Of a stretch of 64,000 nt of DNA, positions 24,948 through 49,993 are shown one piece after another; position 1 is the first letter of the stretch, and the number at the start of each line of letters is the position of its first letter. The stretch spans positions 20,476 to 84,475 of the IMG/VR virus record IMGVR_UViG_2684622670_000009; one strand, written 5' to 3'. Source of the DNA: a virus (Duplodnaviria > Heunggongvirae > Uroviricota > Caudoviricetes). A model generated the notes under the pieces. It was given only the letters and a program-made list of their open reading frames with translations. It searched no databases and was not told the origin of the DNA. The translations under genes and the position numbers were made by a program.

Positions 24948-25111
24948 CACTGATCCTTCGAAGCTGTTTTAAATATCGGCCATACCAATGTTACAGCCAC
25001 TGCCACCAACGCCCCGTCCGATAAAACTGACAGGATTGTGCTGGTGAAATCCACCAGCACGGACAGCAAGAGAAAACCAATGGCGATTGCGATACGTGCC
25101 TTGCTTGCCAT
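24947..25111 (-). CDS. 54-aa membrane protein (P1 tciB position)
   Basis: MASKARIAIAIGFLLLSVLVDFTSTILSVLSDGALVAVAVTLVWPIFKTASKDQ. TAATG overlap with tciA. Confidence 0.5.
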   Translation of the reverse strand: MASKARIAIAIGFLLLSVLVDFTSTILSVLSDGALVAVAVTLVWPIFKTASKDQ

Positions 25112-25545
25112 TACAGATAATCTTCCACACGAAGACCTAAACGACGGCCTACTTCTTCCAGTACTTTGTGTTCTGCTGGCTCGATTTCACCGTCCGCTTC
25201 TGCAATCGTCAGCATGTTAACGAATACTTCTTCCGCTTCTTTTGGGTCGTTTTTGATATCTTCAATTTCGCGAAGGATATTCATGCGACCAACACGGAAG
25301 CCAGCTTCCAGTTGCTCGGTAAAGCGGGTAATTGTTGCGGTAATTTCGTTACCAAAATGACTAAGACGCGGATTAGAGCGGATAAGCTGATCAAGTTTCG
25401 CTGTTTCTTCTTTTTTGATTTCACCATCAGCGGCAGACACCAACAAACAGCCACCGATAATGGCCTCCATCAGATCGCGATTCTCAACTTTTTTCAGCTC
25501 TACTTTTGCAGAAGCGACTTTCTTGCCGAACAATTTACCGAACAT
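25111..25545 (-). CDS. tciA: TerB-family tellurite-resistance-like protein TciA
   Basis: 144 aa with two ADGEI repeats characteristic of TerB. Confidence 0.8.
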   Translation of the reverse strand: MFGKLFGKKVASAKVELKKVENRDLMEAIIGGCLLVSAADGEIKKEETAKLDQLIRSNPRLSHFGNEITATITRFTEQLEAGFRVGRMNILREIEDIKNDPKEAEEVFVNMLTIAEADGEIEPAEHKVLEEVGRRLGLRVEDYL

Positions 25546-25694
25546 TGGTTATCCCTCAATAAAAGTGACATATTTATTAGATTGCGGTGCCGGGTGCCTC
25601 CCGGTGACGTTAACCAGTTAACAATTAACGCCGGAATGTTTAATCATCAAGGAGGATTGTTTTAACTGTTCCGCGTGCGCTTAGCCGAATTCAC

Positions 25695-25806
25695 CGCAAT
25701 GGTAAGAGCACTTGGCTGGCTGGGCGGCGATGACGCCTGTACGCATTTGGTGATCCGGTTCTGCTTCCGGCATTCGCTTAATTAGCCAAATACTCTTAAC
25801 GTTGCG
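25695..25806 (-). repeat. Long-hairpin module D (degenerate copy), immediately 3' of tRNA-Ser
   Basis: 5' arm CGCAACGTTAAGAGTATTTGG pairs with 3' arm CCAAGTGCTCTTACCATTGCG. The arms are homologous to modules A-C. An internal CCGG-AAGCAGAA-CCGG hairpin is present. Confidence 0.45.
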
Positions 25807-25807
25807 C

Positions 25808-25894
25808 TGGTGGAGAGTAATGGAATCGAACCATCATCGCTTGCGCAATGGGACGGTTTTCAAGACCGCTTGAGCGCCATACTCCCTACTCTCC
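25808..25894 (-). tRNA. tRNA-Ser (anticodon UGA), type II with a long variable arm
   Basis: 87 nt. Acceptor GGAGAGT/ACTCTCC; anticodon arm GCGGT-CTTGAAA-ACCGT; variable arm ATTGC-GCAA-GCGAT; T arm GATGG-TTCGATT-CCATT; encoded CCA. Confidence 0.8.
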
Positions 25895-26047
25895 AATGAT
25901 TGTGGTGGTCGGTGCTGATCTCCGACTGCGCCTCTTTTTTTCATAGCCCATAAGGCCGGTCAGTGCGCTTGATGACTGAGGCATCGATATTTACTACGCC
26001 GCCTCGTTGCCATAGGGCGGACTTGCGCGCCAGCAACGCGCATTCAC

Positions 26048-26134
26048 CACAACGGAAAGAGCATTCACGTCTCGCATCGCGGGAAAAAGCCCACGGTAGA
26101 GAGTCGAACTCTACAAATGCTCTTACCTGTTGTG
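26048..26134 (-). repeat. Long-hairpin module A (87 nt)
   Basis: CACAACAGGTAAGAGCATT...AATGCTCTTTCCGTTGTG. Contains a T-arm-like GTAGAG-TTCGACT-CTCTAC hairpin. Confidence 0.55.
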
Positions 26135-26262
26135 TTGTGATGACCGGTGCTGATCTCCGGCTTGCGGTTATTTCAGACTCTCACGGGCGTTTAATTGCCC
26201 CGCCGGACAGCTCTTTTCCGCAATAGCTGCAATGTCTTTCGCGCATCAGCCTGCGCATTCAT

Positions 26263-26349
26263 CACAACGGTAAGGGTACTTCGGAGGGATTCGAACCCTC
26301 TGCCAAGCTCGGCGATCTCCGACGTCGCAAAATACCCTTACCTGTTGTG
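26263..26349 (-). repeat. Long-hairpin module B (87 nt), immediately 3' of the tRNA-like gene
   Basis: CACAACAGGTAAGGGTATTTTG...CGAAGTACCCTTACCGTTGTG, a stem of about 21 bp with one bulged A. Contains GAGGG-TTCGAAT-CCCTC. Confidence 0.55.
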
Positions 26350-26350
26350 C

Positions 26351-26483
26351 TGGTGCCGGTTAACGGATTCGAACCGCTGACCTCTGGCCTAACATCGAAT
26401 CGTTGTCATTTGACCAGCAAGGCTGTCTACCGAAGTAGAAACGATGCTTTGGCTCTCGTGCTCTCCCACTGAGCTAAACCGGC
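26351..26483 (-). ncRNA. tRNA-like gene (Thr-type scaffold) with a ~57-nt insert replacing the anticodon arm
   Basis: GCCGGTT-TA-GCTC-AGTGGGA-GAGC-A...AGGTC-AGCGG-TTCGAAT-CCGTT-AACCGGC-A-CCA. Total length is 133 nt. The insert holds a TCTAC-TTCG-GTAGA hairpin and CATCG/CGATG pairing. I could not fold a canonical 7-nt anticodon loop. Confidence 0.5.
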
Positions 26484-26485
26484 AT

Positions 26486-26561
26486 TGGCGATGGTGGGTG
26501 GATTCGAACCACCGACCAGTTAGTTAACAGCCAACTGCTCTAACCGCTGAGCTACACCATC
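26486..26561 (-). tRNA. trnA: tRNA-Asn (anticodon GUU)
   Basis: GATGGTGTAGCTCAGCGGTTAGAGCAGTTGGCTGTTAACTAACTGGTCGGTGGTTCGAATCCACCCACCATCGCCA. Perfect cloverleaf. Confidence 0.9.
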
Positions 26562-26764
26562 ACTTGCCGGGTACGTCTCCGGCGAGGGCTTCCACCTCCG
26601 TATGCTTTTCGGCGCACCGCGCCCTGGCTGCAATTCGGTAACAGGGGATGCATAACCCTGGCTTCCAGCGTGATTAGCGCTTTCAGCATGACGGGATATA
26701 CCCGTAAATTCGTGGAACTGTACCCAAAGTGCTGTTAAGCACCGCTGTTACGCTGAAAAGAAGA

Positions 26765-26845
26765 CGCAACAGGAAAGGACGCTGACCAACAGATGGCCCC
26801 TTCTCGTTCATCTGGTTAATCACACCAGCGCCCTTACCTGTTGTG
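26765..26845 (-). repeat. Long-hairpin module C (81 nt)
   Basis: CACAACAGGTAAGGGCGCTG...CAGCGTCCTTTCCTGTTGCG. The variable stem part covaries relative to modules A and B. Confidence 0.5.
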
Positions 26846-27026
26846 CCTCCCCGTTCCCTAATACACAGACGGGGACACTCTGCGGTCGATTTTTTGACGG
26901 GGGACGACTCATACCCCGTGGCGTCTGGCTTCTTAGGCCGCAGCCATCATCAGATCATCGTTTGCATTTACTTTAATGGTCAGTTTCTAAACCGCCGCAA
27001 AGTCGCTAACCATGACGAAAACCCTG

Positions 27027-27051
27027 AAAAAACGCCCACCCGAAGATGGGC
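27027..27051 (-). terminator. Strong rho-independent terminator
   Basis: Minus strand GCCCATC-TTCG-GGTGGGC followed by GTTTTTT. Confidence 0.8.
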
Positions 27052-27213
27052 AAACAGGATGTAAGCTCGTTACGCATTTCGGTATTGCCACTTAGGCGTA
27101 TGGTCAACCTGGCAACTCGGCGTCATGAGGGGGAAGGAGTCACTACCCCGCCATACTTGCCGCCGCGCCTGTCGCGGCTAACAGCTAAATCGCTCTATAA
27201 ATCACGATTCATT
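27052..27213 (-). ncRNA. Candidate C1-regulated structured RNA (~185 nt including the terminator)
   Basis: Lies between a predicted sigma70 promoter and the terminator. Several GC-rich hairpins (GCCGCG/CGCGGC, TTGCCA/TGGCAA). Only tiny ORFs without SD. Confidence 0.4.
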
Positions 27214-27219
27214 GAAACC

Positions 27220-27249
27220 ATATTACACTAATAAATTTATTAGAGCAAT
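27220..27249 (-). promoter_or_regulatory. Bivalent C1 operator overlapping a sigma70 promoter
   Basis: Perfect ATTGCTCTAATAAATTT on the minus strand (27249-27233). An inverted, overlapping ATTACACTAATAAATTT sits on the plus strand (27222-27238). Promoter: -35 TTGCTC (27248-27243), 17-nt spacer, -10 TAATAT (27225-27220). Confidence 0.7.
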
Positions 27250-30200
27250 ATAGCAATAACGTCATGAGCTACACCACGAGTGTTCCCCTTACAAGACACA
27301 GAACGTCTGGCAAAAAGAGGTTCCACTCTGAAGCCACTGTCTTGGTAAAGCTCCCTGATGTTTGGCGCACCACTATTAGTAATGAGGATCTTTGCACCTC
27401 GGCGATGAGCATCCATTAGCAGAGATACCAGGCGTTTTTGCTCTTCAAACTTAAAGTCATGACCGGAATAGTTTGTGAACCCCTCTGTATTGGGGAGCGG
27501 TTCATACGGAGGATCGCAAAAGATGACATCTCCTTCTCCGGCAGCTTCAATCACCGCTGAAAAATCACCACATACAAACTCAGAACGCCCTTCAGCACCG
27601 AGGAAGGCTTCCATCTCCTGTAATGGGAAATACGGAGTTTTATACTTCCCATAACCAACATTAAACTCACCGGCCTGGTTGTAACGCGTCAATCCGTTAA
27701 AACAATGTCGGTTCAGGAACAAAAACGCTGCTGCACGATGTAAATCATCATAGGCTTGTTTGTTAAACGCATTCCGTACTGCCAGGTATCCTTCCTGTGT
27801 GTTGTAGTCCTGGAAAAACCGATGCGCCAGAGTGATAAGTGAATGTCCCTCACGTTGCAGAGTCCTGTAAAAGTTAATCAGGTCAGCATTCACATCATTT
27901 AGCAGATTTTCTTGATATCCGGCATTTATGAAGACAGCTCCGCCACCAACGAAAGGCTCGATCAGGCGCTTTCCGTCAGGTAAATGCCTAAAGATTTGTT
28001 CAAGAACACCAAATTTTCCGCCGACCCATTTAAATATGGGACGGTCAAATTCTGCCGTTAGCTTAACTCTCCGTTCTGTTGCTTCATGATTTTTTGCCTG
28101 CTGATATGCAGCCTTAATAATCCGCTCACCAATCCATCGCATTACTGGTATCGCCATGCTATTGCCGATCGCTTTGTAACGCGGTCCGTCAGCTGCAAGC
28201 ATCGCGGCCTCTTCTTCGCTTAAATCTGGATAGTGATTGCGAAGGTATGCCAGTTCATCTGAAGTAACTTTTTTACGCTTTTCCGTCGGGATCAACGTAT
28301 GCCCATCAGGAAAACCTTGCAGTCTTTCACATTCGACAGGGGTAAGACGGCGGACAGCTACTGCTGCGTTTCCTACGTCATAGCAAACGGCTGTTGTATT
28401 TTTGGCCATTAAAGATGGTGAAGTATTCTTAGTTGCAGCATGTTGTGTACCGCTCATACGCTCAGGAAAAGCCAATGTAACAAGATGCTCATGGCTTTCT
28501 TGCTCACGTGCCCGCAATGTACCATGCCCTTCTGACCAAAAACCTGCTCCTGTGCTGCTAAAAACTGCAAGGTCAGTGGCATCTTTAAAGTCTCTCGCCT
28601 TTACTGTCGATGCGGTTTCATCGCCAATATATTCCCCAAATGCCGCCATCCTGAAAGCGTTTACGGCTTTCGTCGATTTCATACCGGGGGTAATGTCAGC
28701 GTGTAGGCATGGATTTAGGCTTTCGCCACTGATTGCAGCGCCATTTGCAATAATGGCGGAAGCGATTTCCTTCTTTTTTCGGCTCGGCGCAATATTCCGG
28801 CGCACGCCTTCGAACTCAAAAAGTACCGTTGCGGGATCGAGGTCTGTTCGAGCACTTGCGACAACAAACACGCGTCGGCGTCGTTGTGCCACTCCGAAGT
28901 ATTGGGCATCAAGGATTCTCCAGGCCACCTTTCGCTGCGGTCCATAAATACAACCACACTGCGGCCACTTTGGAGCATGGCAACCGGTTTTGCCATCCCA
29001 CCGCCAGAACGCGTTACTTTTTCCTGATTCAGGTCGATCACCTGGTTCAAATGGCGCATCTTCTCCAGCCAATCCGGCAAGGAAACATCCGAAGGCGTTA
29101 TCTGCCGATGACAAGACTCCTGGGACATTTTCCCAGACGATAACGGCTGGTTTGAGAAATGACTCAGCCCGTTTGTCGTCAATTGCATTTGCAAGCTCCA
29201 CATACTTTAAAGTTAGCGCGCCACGCTCATCATCAAGCCCACCACGTAATCCCGCGATACTGAATGCCTGACAGTTATGGACCACCGCACCATTGAGGAT
29301 ATAGGAATGATCACCTTCGACTTCTATGTTGTATACAGTATCTAGGCCTACCGATTTAAACTCTTTGACTGTTCGTAAAAGCATTCCATGAGCCAATCTT
29401 GATTTACGTGACAATTTCTGCGGGCAGATTGTTACCTGATAATAATTCCGTTGATTTACCACGCGATCCTCGATCACTTTTTTGGGCTCAACTTCAATAA
29501 AGCTGACCGAAGAAACATAACCACAAGTCTGTGACACCCCCGCAACGCCCCAAGCAAGCGCAGGACTAACACTATTAATTCTAAATCCCGCTTTACCACT
29601 TGGTGTCCCATCAGTATCAAGATAGCCTTGTAAAAACACATGACGCAATGGATGCGACATCACCCATGCAGGGATACGCTTAGCATGGCTTAACTCGCCA
29701 AAATGTTCATTAAGCCAATTGGCATAACACGTATCATTCAAGGTTACTTTGATGCTCCCTCGGATTTCTCTTGCCACGGAAAATATGTTTTCTGGTATGC
29801 GACAATGAAACTTTCTCAATTTCTGGCAATTTATGCCAAAAACAACCGCCTTCTTAGATTTACCTCTCCATCTCCTAATATATCCATCGCCAACATAAGC
29901 GCCCGCAAGATACATAGCCTGTTCTTCAGACAAGAACCGAGAACAAATATCTGGAGATGCAATATTGAAATTAGTTAGAGCGCACCATTGATATCCTGGC
30001 ATATCACATGCTGCTCGCCATTCCGGTTCAGACAACAACTCTCTCTTAAAATATGTGCCATTTTTCCGGGTGTTTTGGGCTTTCCACCGAACAGCCAGGA
30101 AGGGATGGTCATTGGTTGTTCTTATACCTAAAGGCTGCCCAACGGCATTAAGTAACCCCGTATTAGCTATTTTTGAACCAACTCTTTTTACTTGTTGTAA

Positions 30201-30527
30201 CCGCCCGAGATGACTGACTACGTAATCGCCAGGGCAAACATCTTCTATTGGTTTATAACCATTTTTACAAAGAACCATATGCCCCGCGGTAAAACATGGT
30301 GTTCCCCCGACGAGCACGTCAGGGGATTCGATTTCCCCAGCCAGGACTTTTTTGGCAAGTTTAGTCATGTCGCCAAGGTTGGCGACATGGGGCCAGCGGT
30401 GCGCAAGAACGGCCGATGGAAAAGACTCGATTTCAGCAAACCACGCCGGACGCATACCCAACGGTTCCCAGGCAATACTCGCGGCTTCAATTCCACTGCA
30501 AACAGATCCATAGCACAGCTCTTTCAC
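27240..30527 (-). CDS. dmt: Bifunctional DNA methyltransferase Dmt (N-terminal C5-cytosine MTase interrupted by an intein; C-terminal Dam-like N6-adenine MTase)
   Basis: 1095 aa. C5 motifs: I ([10 protein letters not shown]), a split motif IV (GGTP/CQAFS), ENV, and QRRRRVF-type. C-terminal Dam motifs: KWVGGK, FVGGGAV, DPPY. Confidence 0.9.
29274..30296 (-). mobile_element. Intein with LAGLIDADG homing endonuclease domain (aa 78-418 of Dmt)
   Basis: Starts CFTAGHMVL (Cys1). Block [17 protein letters not shown] motifs [11 protein letters not shown] and [11 protein letters not shown]; ends GAVVHN followed by Cys+1. Excision restores GGTPCQAFS. Confidence 0.85.
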
Positions 30528-49679: not shown

Positions 49680-49729
49680 AGTTACGGCCTCATTCGTAGG
49701 TTTAACAACCTGCGCCCCGCTGCTAAACG

Positions 49730-49806
49730 GGTGGCAGGACGTGACGGGGTTAGCAGACTGGCACGAATGAAACCAGCAGGCCGAAGCCTCCCCATCACGC
49801 CCCACC
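49730..49806 (-). ncRNA. c4: c4 antisense repressor RNA (immI)
   Basis: 10-bp closing stem CGTGATGGGG/CCCCGTCACG and an AGGC-TTCG-GCCT hairpin. The loops carry CATTCGT and CTGCTAA. These are complementary to the direct repeats GTTTAGCAG...ACGAATG found both upstream (~49872-49900) and downstream (~49685-49730). Confidence 0.6.
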
Positions 49807-49993
49807 ATAATTCGGGCGTAACGTGGTTTTACGGACACAAAAATACCGCAATATCGGATATCTGCGGTTGTCCGCATTCGTATTCAGGCTGCTAAACCCG
49901 GTCGCAGAATTTGCTACGACGGCGGAACTATAAGCCTGAACGATTAAAAGGTCAATATGATGCGAAAAGATAGCATTCGCGACTTAAAAATAC

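Follow-up and report, generated by a model that had tools for sequence, protein, structure and literature searches.

A bipartite hairpin and tRNA-shaped RNA module in a P1-like phage-plasmid and its relatives in proteobacterial phages and prophages

tRNA-like elements serve as punctuation in mascRNA after MALAT1, in mitochondrial tRNA punctuation and in the tRNA scaffolds used for recombinant RNA, and RNase III processing stems are known in the T7 early region and the rRNA operon. Phages also carry the stable RNAs rnaC and rnaD in the tRNA cluster of T4, and the large RNAs GOLLD and ROOL beside tRNAs. PasD RNAs, 80-240 nt long, are Northern-verified and Hfq-dependent (PMC8550237), and according to Zhu et al. 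2026 (bioRxiv 10.64898/2026.05.13.724894) they are homologous to the small RNA (sRNA) STnc100 (Rfam RF02076). Here we compare these systems with a locus in a 64,000-nt stretch of caudoviricete DNA (IMG/VR record IMGVR_UViG_2684622670_000009, positions 20,476 to 84,475; hereafter the window), a P1-like phage-plasmid in which four long hairpins are interleaved with tRNA genes. These hairpins are copies of an element, L, that makes up the 5′ half of L-S, a two-part module of non-coding RNA, and the module is present in hundreds of phages and prophages across Proteobacteria, almost entirely unannotated. We hold the identity and anatomy of the module, as described below, to be highly probable.

The original prediction had drawn four related elements on the minus strand, and each folds at these coordinates as a long hairpin more stable than its shuffled counterparts, none of 200 shuffles folding as well as any of the four:

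26048-26134, minus strand: hairpin L_A, fold -36.9 kcal/mol, z -4.6
26263-26349, minus strand: hairpin L_B, fold -42.7 kcal/mol, z -6.2
26765-26845, minus strand: hairpin L_C, fold -37.9 kcal/mol, z -4.7
25695-25806, minus strand: hairpin L_D, fold -41.1 kcal/mol, z -4.6

The base that the copies share, CACAAC-A-GGTAAG / CTTWCC-GTTGTG, is as it had been described, and the inner stems adjoining it differ between copies yet stay paired. A single bulged A interrupts the stem generally, except in L_C, where this A pairs with U. The stems of L_A and L_B are 21 bp long, and the T-arm-like hairpins noticed in their tops are present: GTAGAGTTCGACTCTCTAC adjoins the 5′ strand in L_A, and the tRNA-like top of L_B has one arm plus a T-arm (GAGGGTTCGAATCCCTC) stacked on the 3′ strand. 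Base changes among relatives are compensatory, as between CACAAC..GTTGCG and CATAAC..GTTACG, the latter being the L_C variant of D6-type plasmids, and also in TACAACGTTGAG..CTCAACGTTGTG. L_D had been taken for a degenerate copy, which it is not: its interior consists of two small hairpins and shares 82% identity with a segment after tRNA-Ser in rV5-like phages that lies behind a different closing stem, and its inner hairpin shows a GGCG/CGCC vs GUCG/CGAC compensation against the rV5-like sequence. In the rV5-like phage phita32 (L004 2592-2790) this homologue is closed by UGUUGACC/GGUCAACA, and the next element after it is an unannotated tRNA-like gene with a long variable arm (L004 2690-2788), called tRNA-??? 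by ARAGORN.

Each L is followed by a domain, S, of 90-150 nt, and the GTTGTG base, the GTGRTGAATGCGC hairpin and the CCGG-AGAYnnnn-CCGG hairpin, formerly listed apart, are the two ends of this one domain. S is closed by a stem of 7-10 bp, here called stem P1 to keep it distinct from phage P1, after which a 3-nt linker, AAU, leads to a first hairpin of 4 bp (hairpin 1, GCGC-AGGCUGAU-GCGC) and then to a hypervariable middle of 20-150 nt. The last, T-like hairpin, of 5 bp (GCCGG-AGAUCAGCA-CCGGC), abuts the 3′ strand of stem P1 without a linker. The loops of the two hairpins are complementary, GCUGAU with AUCAGC, so that the topology may be likened to a cloverleaf and the loop pairing to the D-loop/T-loop elbow of tRNA. 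The sequence after L_B, for example, runs GUUGUGAUGAAU, GCGC-AGGCUGAU-GCGC, ~80 variable nt, GCCGG-AGAUCAGCA-CCGGU and then CAUCACAAC. A covariance model, R1, derived from an alignment (A1) of 37 diverse S copies, finds three S copies in the window (S_B, S_A and S_D), and an atypical domain follows L_C:

26136-26266, minus strand: S_B, canonical (model R1, 84.1 bits, E 2.5e-21)
25901-26051, minus strand: S_A (model R1, 58.4 bits; this copy was included in the training alignment)
25583-25698, minus strand: S_D, divergent, the 5′ leader of tciA (Rfam RF02076, 50.3 bits vs gathering score 47)
26572-26768, minus strand: S_C, atypical closed domain after L_C, from the minimum free energy (MFE) fold

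In S_B, stem P1 pairs 26266-26260 with 26142-26136, hairpin 1 spans 26256-26241 and the T-like hairpin 26161-26143. S_A keeps the same plan with GCGCG-UUGCUG-GCGCGC as hairpin 1, UCGG-AGAUCAGCA-CCGA as T-like hairpin and UGUGGUG/CACCACA as stem P1. S_D, which is absent from the training set, is recovered by model R1 with 23.1 bits (E 3e-4) at the same coordinates as the STnc100 match, and it ends 37 nt before the start codon of tciA. A canonical S between L_C and tRNA-Asn was sought and rejected, model R1 giving none at E<=5; a different long-range helix is found there instead, in which CGUCUUC (26766-26760) pairs with GGAGACG (26580-26574), compensated in phage P1 as CGUUUUC / GGAAACG. The small CCGG-AGAY-CCGG motif that had been listed at 25909, 26144, 26309 and 26567 is present at all four positions but is not one separate motif: the first two are the 3′ ends of S, the third lies inside the top of L_B and the fourth is the 3′ strand of the long-range helix closing 26572-26768. 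Similarly, the homologous hairpins noted after A and B (GTGRTGAATGCGC) exist, but they belong with GTTGTG to the 5′ ends of the larger domain. The unit boundaries have to be redrawn, L being coupled to a downstream tRNA-shaped domain.

The sequences after L_A and L_B share the plan of the Rfam STnc100 alignment, which opens with UGCGGUGAAU and a hairpin and closes with CCGGGAGGCACCCGG and then CACCGCA pairing back to the start; the Rfam consensus agrees with S in its closing stem, in GGUGAAU, in the first hairpin and in a last hairpin set directly against the closing stem. The threshold is passed by S_D only (50.3 vs 47 bits), and the Rfam model misses canonical S, finding nothing apart from S_D in 25400-27300 of the window at E<=10. 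STnc100 matches are likewise absent from the HK620, IME11, mEp460 and Magnus loci (E<=1) and from the Pseudomonas, Massilia and other loci (E<=0.1), and no Rfam family lies over S in the Pseudomonas, Massilia, Caballeronia, Pseudoxanthomonas and Rhizobium loci. STnc100 and PasD are also prophage-encoded, near Q, TerB-family and lysis genes. STnc100 is one divergent branch of the S family and, according to Zhu et al. 2026, PasD is another. The STnc100/PasD literature that we found deals with enteric Hfq sRNAs that have terminators; a pan-proteobacterial family, the loop contact, L and the link to tRNAs are absent from it. The verdict of the original prediction that the family was unrecognised holds for L, which reaches the gathering score of no Rfam family and draws nothing but noise at E<=10 (mir-465, MIR1094), and fails for S, one copy of which (S_D) is STnc100.

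The structure of S is backed by covariation. In alignment A1, stem P1 is paired in 100% of cells and five of seven pairs have changed on both sides; the 3′ strand of stem P1 was placed by complementarity, which brings in some circularity, but it always abuts the independently conserved last hairpin. In an independent set from ~100 bacterial species (A3), 99.0% of cells are paired, 13 of 16 pairs show double changes and 196 cells are compensatory, with a covariation score of 0.385 against 0.099 in shuffles and at most 0.063 with slid partners. Of 108 copies, nearly all have four or more complementary bases in the loop contact irrespective of loop length, with CAGC retained even in loops of 12-14 nt, and the contact has been compensated twice independently, as GACUGA/UCAGU (P7) and GGUGAU/AUCACC. 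The tRNA-type topology, with the closing stem stacked on the 5-bp hairpin and a loop elbow, is supported by this covariation; the loops themselves depart from the T- and D-loop consensus. The earlier proposal of a selected single-strand structure on the transcribed strand is borne out, the covariation reaching far beyond P1-like genomes, where conservation was found as well.

S is also widespread. Model R1 gives 108 full-length matches over 100 viral loci and 103 over 100 genome loci. At least 120 IMG/VR contigs contain the exact 21-mer TGAATGYGCAGGCTGATGCGC, as do at least 120 species-representative genomes, by record title mostly of alpha-, beta- and gamma-proteobacteria, with a few metagenome-assembled genomes (MAGs) labelled from other phyla; the genomes include Enterobacterales, Pseudomonas, Burkholderiales, Xanthomonadales, Halomonas, Alteromonas, Rhizobium and Pelagibacterium. 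A BLAST search with B-S-A finds the S part 88-98% identical in lambdoid phages (mEp460, Stx2 phages, HK620), the N4-like IME11 and the Ackermannviridae phage Magnus, and also in many Klebsiella phages. Lambdoid phages and ~20% of complete E. coli genomes carry copies of S_B that are 95-98% identical, and the 1,060 of 5,426 such genomes with an S_B-like copy have no annotation on S. The host range of the GC-rich L-S types was taken from the genome scan, isolated phages with these types being absent from the phage collection. In a Rhizobium MAG, the Rfam Proteo-phage-1 RNA (L137 2325-2405, 60.4 bits) lies ~1.9 kb from S on the same prophage-like contig. In a literature search limited to papers outside subscription journals, we found no paper with the 21-mer and none that describes L, the pairing of the two loops or so wide a distribution.

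L recurs with S across the family in a form that is free in sequence. A helix of 12 bp or more that ends at the L-S junction, on the bases just ahead of UGAAU, is present in 70 of 121 viral contexts, and the stems are unrelated in sequence, as in CACACATGAGAGCG/CGCTCTCATGTGTG, CCTTCACAGAAGCAG/CTGCTTCTGTGAGGG and CCATCACAAGATGCGC/GCGTATCTTGTGATGG. When L was sorted into 45 non-redundant classes (3′ strands <60% identical) and set against cross-locus pairings as controls, 17 classes beat the 1% control (0.45 expected) and 12 beat the 0.1% level; so do 33 of 115 genome contexts at 1%. Given these control-beating helices, L is a frequent, structurally selected, sequence-free accessory of S. Some 30-55% of S copies are preceded by an L of different sequence and preserved pairing, 15-27 bp long with a free top, and the median identity of the 3′ strands is 30%. 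Because 265 of 2313 pairs (11%) in the predicted L helices are G-U, the fold is specific to one strand. Many lone L-S units have, directly 5′ of L, a small hairpin whose stem covaries and whose loop is GAAAGA or ACGAAAC (CCGG-GAAAGA-CCGG and CUCC-ACGAAAC-GGAG, for example; loci L111, L133, L122 and L012; phage P1, L003 3574-3596); it looks like a vestige of a preceding S, consisting of the last hairpin and the 3′ strand of stem P1.

Both halves of the module are linked to tRNAs. Of 234 S copies, 23 have a tRNA on the same strand no more than 400 nt away, ~7 times the background (64 tRNAs in 1.96 Mb of loci). These 23 contexts are too few for a module tied to the phage tRNA operon or to P1-like phages, and the HK620 and mEp460 loci have L-S without any tRNA. 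The tRNA-likeness noticed in the window is real but occasional in the family: T-arm-like hairpins, beside the 3′ or 5′ strand, occur in 10 of 67 L tops vs 1.4 in shuffles. The L of Magnus has a class-II tRNA-like D-arm and T-arm, and in Massilia sp. TS11 L is a true, intact tRNA-Gly(UCC) without encoded CCA, its acceptor stem extended 6 bp by CACACA/UGUGUG, the 3′ strand of which passes straight into stem P1. This betaproteobacterial locus (L136 4473-4800), with tRNA-Gly(UCC) in its extended acceptor stem, S and a further tRNA, shows the logic of L-S with a live tRNA. Pieces of D-arm and T-arm also lie within the S middles of loci L122 and L044. A CCA starts 0-4 nt after a 7-bp stem P1 in 34 of 100 copies, compared with ~2 per offset further on, as at the HK620 S end (CACCACA-G-CCA); a universal CCA tail is rejected, the tail being enriched and not constant.

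Compared with tRNAs and tRNA-like punctuation elements, S shares the closing stem on a 5-bp hairpin, the 4-bp hairpin after a short linker, the elbow, the frequent NCCA-like tail, the place in tRNA arrays and, in Massilia, a real tRNA abutting stem P1. It differs in its 3-nt linker, its huge variable middle, its loops of 8 and 9 nt, in which at most six Watson-Crick pairs replace the T-loop/D-loop contacts, and in going unrecognised by tRNA models. Like rnaC/rnaD, GOLLD and ROOL, L-S is structured, non-coding and co-transcribed with phage tRNA genes; it is much smaller and modular and has no sequence or model match to them (Rfam holds GOLLD and ROOL). YrlA resembles L in joining a long stem to a tRNA-like module, and module A has the YrlA order of T-arm, hairpin and short arm. 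A YrlA/Y RNA was nevertheless rejected (21.4 bits vs gathering score 69), the match lying on the pair of tRNA-Asn and tRNA-like gene and not on L; E. coli K-12 is not known to carry Rsr. A hammerhead or self-cleaving core in GUGAUGAAUGCGC...CUGAUG...GAAAG was rejected as well: GAAU precedes CUGAUG, both in one hairpin, which is the wrong order against CUGANGA-helix II-GAAA-helix III, and the GAAAG after hairpin 1 is not conserved.

In the window the modules lie in the following array, to which C4 is added as a more distant landmark:

27240-30527, minus strand: dmt
26486-26561, minus strand: tRNA-Asn (GUU), by ARAGORN; Rfam tRNA 71.7 bits
26351-26485, minus strand: tRNA-like gene with ~60 extra nt replacing the anticodon arm, from sequence and fold
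25808-25894, minus strand: class-II tRNA-Ser (UGA), by ARAGORN; annotated in D6
25111-25545, minus strand: tciA, ATG at 25545
49727-49812, minus strand: C4 antisense RNA

Read along the minus strand, the array begins with the C1-controlled ban promoter region and continues with a DicF-like segment with a terminator, a tmRNA-like (transfer-messenger RNA-like) tag frame, L_C, the closed 200-nt domain, tRNA-Asn, the odd tRNA-like gene, L_B, S_B, L_A, S_A, tRNA-Ser, L_D, S_D and tciA. B and D adjoin a CCA, as had been noted, starting 1-2 nt after the tRNA-like gene and tRNA-Ser, respectively. The tRNA-Ser is 82% identical to that of rV5-like phages. The tRNA-like gene, where phage P1, P7 and D6 carry a normal tRNA-Thr, has normal acceptor, D-arm and T-arm; ARAGORN calls it neither here nor in a nearly identical E. 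albertii plasmid (L005). Overall the locus is 92-97% identical to the dmt-tciA interval of phage P1, P7 and D6, as a mosaic, and an interval of this type is present in 1,121 plasmid records. The comparison with phage P1 that had been suggested does find the modules (NC_005856, stretch L003: 2656-2736, 3095-3181, 3321-3408 and 3597-3675), the second being an identical copy of L_B, partly beneath the hypothetical open reading frames (ORFs) plp and upl of the opposite strand. The strand opposite plp and upl (L003 3064-3633) carries tRNA-Thr along with three L hairpins and an S domain; Pfam has no match for either ORF, and plp and upl may be spurious ORF calls over structured-RNA genes. Among the P1-like plasmids L001-L010, tRNA sets at the locus differ (Asn-Thr; Arg-Tyr-Thr; Arg-Thr; Asn plus the tRNA-like gene) and tRNA-Ser is variably present, the flanking L/S modules being constant, which suggests cassette-like exchange via recombination within conserved RNA modules. 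The window Dmt methyltransferase has 1095 aa vs ~754 aa in phage P1, with an intein-like insert (residues ~77-418; Hint_2, Intein_splicing and LAGLIDADG_3 matches) within its C5-methylase half.

The structured strand of the module is always the transcribed one. Its commonest settings are downstream of a cI-like repressor gene (cI-like XRE/S24, upstream on the same strand in 25 loci) and between Q and lysis genes; by reading of the sequence, 14 loci encode an endolysin-like protein downstream in the same orientation; Q-like, RusA-like and spanin-like proteins, so named from sequences and annotations, are further neighbours. The L-S of HK620 is flanked by qut and the terminator tQ within the pR′ late leader, and the P1-like array lies in the leader of the C1-controlled ban operon. 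By analogy with lambda pRM and pR′, these positions would be transcribed in lysogens, and sense transcription would come with the neighbours, in the ban-operon leader of P1-like elements and in the cI transcript or pR′ late leader of lambdoid ones. The DicF-like segment (27033-27200, minus strand), annotated as such in phage P1, ends in a strong intrinsic terminator at 27056-27033. Since a scan of the minus strand downstream of it gave no promoter-like site, the array seems to depend on ban-promoter read-through or on an unrecognised promoter.

Taken together, we favour an explanation in which the L-S module has an S half that the cell handles like a tRNA, and we put the probability of this explanation as a whole at roughly 0.55; the processing and scaffold mechanism that goes with it is more tentative. 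RNase P would cut at the 5′ end of stem P1, and trimming would produce the 3′ end beyond this stem, at the site of the frequent NCCA-like tail. Where tRNAs and L-S units form arrays, as in the window, they would punctuate each other, so that each cut at S would also make the 3′ end of the upstream neighbour, be it a tRNA or an L hairpin. L, whose length would suffice for cleavage by RNase III, would serve as a hairpin for 5′ processing or insulation; it may also be a tRNA, decayed or now and then intact, enclosed in a leader-trailer stem. Stable, structured small RNAs would result, with their function in the variable arms, either as base-pairing seeds, as reported for Hfq-bound STnc100/PasD, or as tRNA-like decoys. 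Among the roles first put forward for the hairpins, processing signals and tRNA-like RNAs appear to be the best leads.

Several observations weigh against this explanation. The RNase P and RNase III roles are ones that we infer, and ARAGORN and Rfam RF00005 call no tRNA in L or S, finding only tRNA-Asn, tRNA-Ser and a CAU tRNA. The 9-nt T-like loop of S does not fit the 7-nt T-loop consensus, only about one third of copies have a CCA-like tail, and the folding energies of single S sequences are unremarkable (z -0.9 to -1.3). L is missing from roughly half of S copies and is therefore not essential for S. The near-invariance of the 21-mer, stems included, goes beyond what folding alone asks for and suggests a sequence-specific partner outside the proposed model. 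Lastly, published work has STnc100/PasD as ordinary Hfq base-pairing sRNAs with terminators, and the P1-like copies are without terminators.

One alternative account would make L and S only processing signals, RNase III or RNase E spacers of the tRNA operon with no product of their own. The interleaving of the window copies with tRNAs, B and D standing right after CCA, and the ~7-fold enrichment of tRNAs near S all speak for it. So does L as a helix: it resembles RNase III stems in being a 15-27 bp, mostly perfect helix with small bulges between functional RNAs, and the ~21-bp stems suit the enzyme by what is generally known of the T7 and rRNA stems, the modelled lengths (21 bp in A and B, 15-27 bp in relatives) being compatible with a substrate. 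L differs from these stems in sharing a strand with the next domain, and many L stems are shorter than two helical turns. We consider spacers without a product unlikely, because no tRNA lies on the same strand within 400 nt in 211 of 234 S contexts, HK620 and mEp460 have L-S and no tRNA, the S core is conserved far beyond the need of a spacer, and family members accumulate as discrete Hfq-bound RNAs (PMC8550237).

The tRNA pieces in L could instead mean that L is a fossil tRNA gene in a leader-trailer stem, its top a decaying pseudo-tRNA with no function beyond sparing S. The real tRNA-Gly at the L position in Massilia, the class-II D-arm and T-arm of the Magnus L, the 7-fold enrichment of T-arm-like hairpins in L tops and the swapping of tRNA sets among P1-like plasmids would all follow. 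On the other side, perfect pairing is kept at ~30% stem identity, so that selection acts on the helix itself, 85% of the tops are without tRNA-likeness, and the helix always ends at the same S junction. We consider it unlikely that decay accounts for L.

The way in which L and S share a strand raises a further alternative. The outer 6-8 bp of L use the same nucleotides as the 5′ strand of stem P1, so that the two elements compete for one strand. When they are folded together (MFE), stem P1 is closed, L is cut to GGUAAG/CUUACC, which abuts stem P1 gap-free, and CACAAC is single-stranded; the conserved base of the original prediction is, in such folds, an alternative and probably transient partner of a strand belonging to S. 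A three-strand riboregulatory switch would exploit this competition, L closed vs S closed controlling downstream genes such as tciA with its S_D leader. L outer pairs and stem P1 are indeed mutually exclusive in every family examined, S_D lies 37 nt before the tciA start codon, and STnc100 and TerB-family genes are neighbours in lambdoid prophages. Such a switch is nonetheless improbable, as most L-S units have no close downstream gene and some precede a terminator (tQ in HK620), no ligand or protein partner is known, and the predicted ground state is simply S closed.

Upstream of L_C lies a block that recalls tmRNA:

26965-26933, minus strand: tag frame GCA AAC GAT GAT CTG ATG ATG GCT GCG GCC TAA (ANDDLMMAAA*)
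~27010-26850, minus strand: conserved upstream block and two pseudoknots leading into L_C

The block was found in 35 distinct contexts as a 10-codon frame preceded by a conserved sequence that ends in AAAG(A)TAAAT, and is also present in phage P1, P7, D6, HK620, the N4-like IME11 and the Ackermannviridae phage Magnus; the L after it in HK620, IME11 and Magnus is the equivalent of L_C. There are nine 10-codon tag types, including ANDDVVLMAA, ANDDLMLMAA, ANDEQFLAVA, ANEEMYLAVA and ANDDLMMVAA, and a tenth context whose frame is open without a stop. Within each type all nucleotide variants are synonymous, and this constraint at the level of the peptide speaks for decoding of the frame. The tag is followed by two pseudoknots whose loop pairings, read from the sequences, covary (CCAG/CUGG, CCGA/UCGG, GUCG/CGAC); the second shares CACA(A)C with the 5′ edge of L. 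A literature search on five tag peptides, subscription journals lying outside it, found them in no paper. The likeness to tmRNA, including its two-piece (permuted) form, extends from the resume codon GCA, the AN(D/E)(D/E) start and the AA-type end to a stop codon in a small hairpin, pseudoknots after the tag and a tRNA-like domain nearby. By contrast, no recognisable tRNA-like domain with a G3-U70 pair surrounds the tag, nor does any conventional one that we recognised enclose it, and the order tag, L, S fits neither a standard nor a permuted gene. tmRNA models score 21-33 bits at the block in three unrelated phages, below the gathering scores of 47-50. A complete tmRNA was rejected: ARAGORN calls none at 46 block loci, compared with 21 of 89 control loci, and the flanks in HK620, IME11 and phage P1 have no acceptor partner that we could find. 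The alanine identity pair G3-U70 is absent from stem P1 of S.

The possibility that tag, pseudoknots, L and an S with CCA are parts of one larger phage tmRNA-like RNA for ribosome rescue or tagging would make sense of the AN(D/E)(D/E)....A(A) frame directly upstream of L_C and its counterparts in HK620, IME11 and Magnus, of their purely synonymous variation, of the covarying pseudoknots and of the sub-threshold matches. We think it has little chance of being right, given that a tag lies within 700 nt in only 12 of 124 S contexts, that ARAGORN and the missing G3-U70 pair speak against it, and that a tag placed 5′ of the acceptor-like stem cannot be reconciled with known trans-translation and would be severed from S by an RNase P cut. 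Elements acting as DNA, whether attC-like recombination or cassette boundaries, miniature inverted-repeat transposable elements (MITEs) or replication signals, would suit the mosaic locus of P1-like plasmids, the near-identical S_B common to P1-like and lambdoid phages and, by eye only, the resemblance of CACAAC/GTTGTG to integron core sites, but they are very improbable, as the 11% of G-U pairs in L and the G-U and compensatory pairs in stem P1 and the loop contact point to structure on one strand, always the transcribed one. The cassette-like recombination sites of the original prediction are left without support, no search having been aimed at target-site duplications, terminal inverted repeats, an integron integrase or another associated recombinase.

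Read most broadly, and with a little less than even odds in our judgement, L-S is an undescribed pan-proteobacterial class of phage and prophage RNA, with an S scaffold matured by the tRNA machinery of the host and a fusion to a tag, of which STnc100 and PasD are local twigs. In such a class S, often standing behind a tRNA or former tRNA in a long stem, would display a hypervariable arm on a 21-nt core that hardly varies, and in one enterobacterial lineage, which includes phage P1, it would be fused downstream of a translated tmRNA-like tag template devoid of a conventional tRNA-like domain. The 21-mer is invariant from Rhizobium to Pseudomonas to E. coli prophages in a domain with otherwise freely covarying stems, a degree of constraint usual only in core cellular RNAs, and the modules have been hidden in the model phage P1 under plp and upl. 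STnc100 and PasD, known only as Hfq-bound prophage sRNAs, would gain a structural and evolutionary context, and phage tRNA arrays would be tied to small-RNA biogenesis. The tag template beside the module could show a new phage use or subversion of trans-translation.

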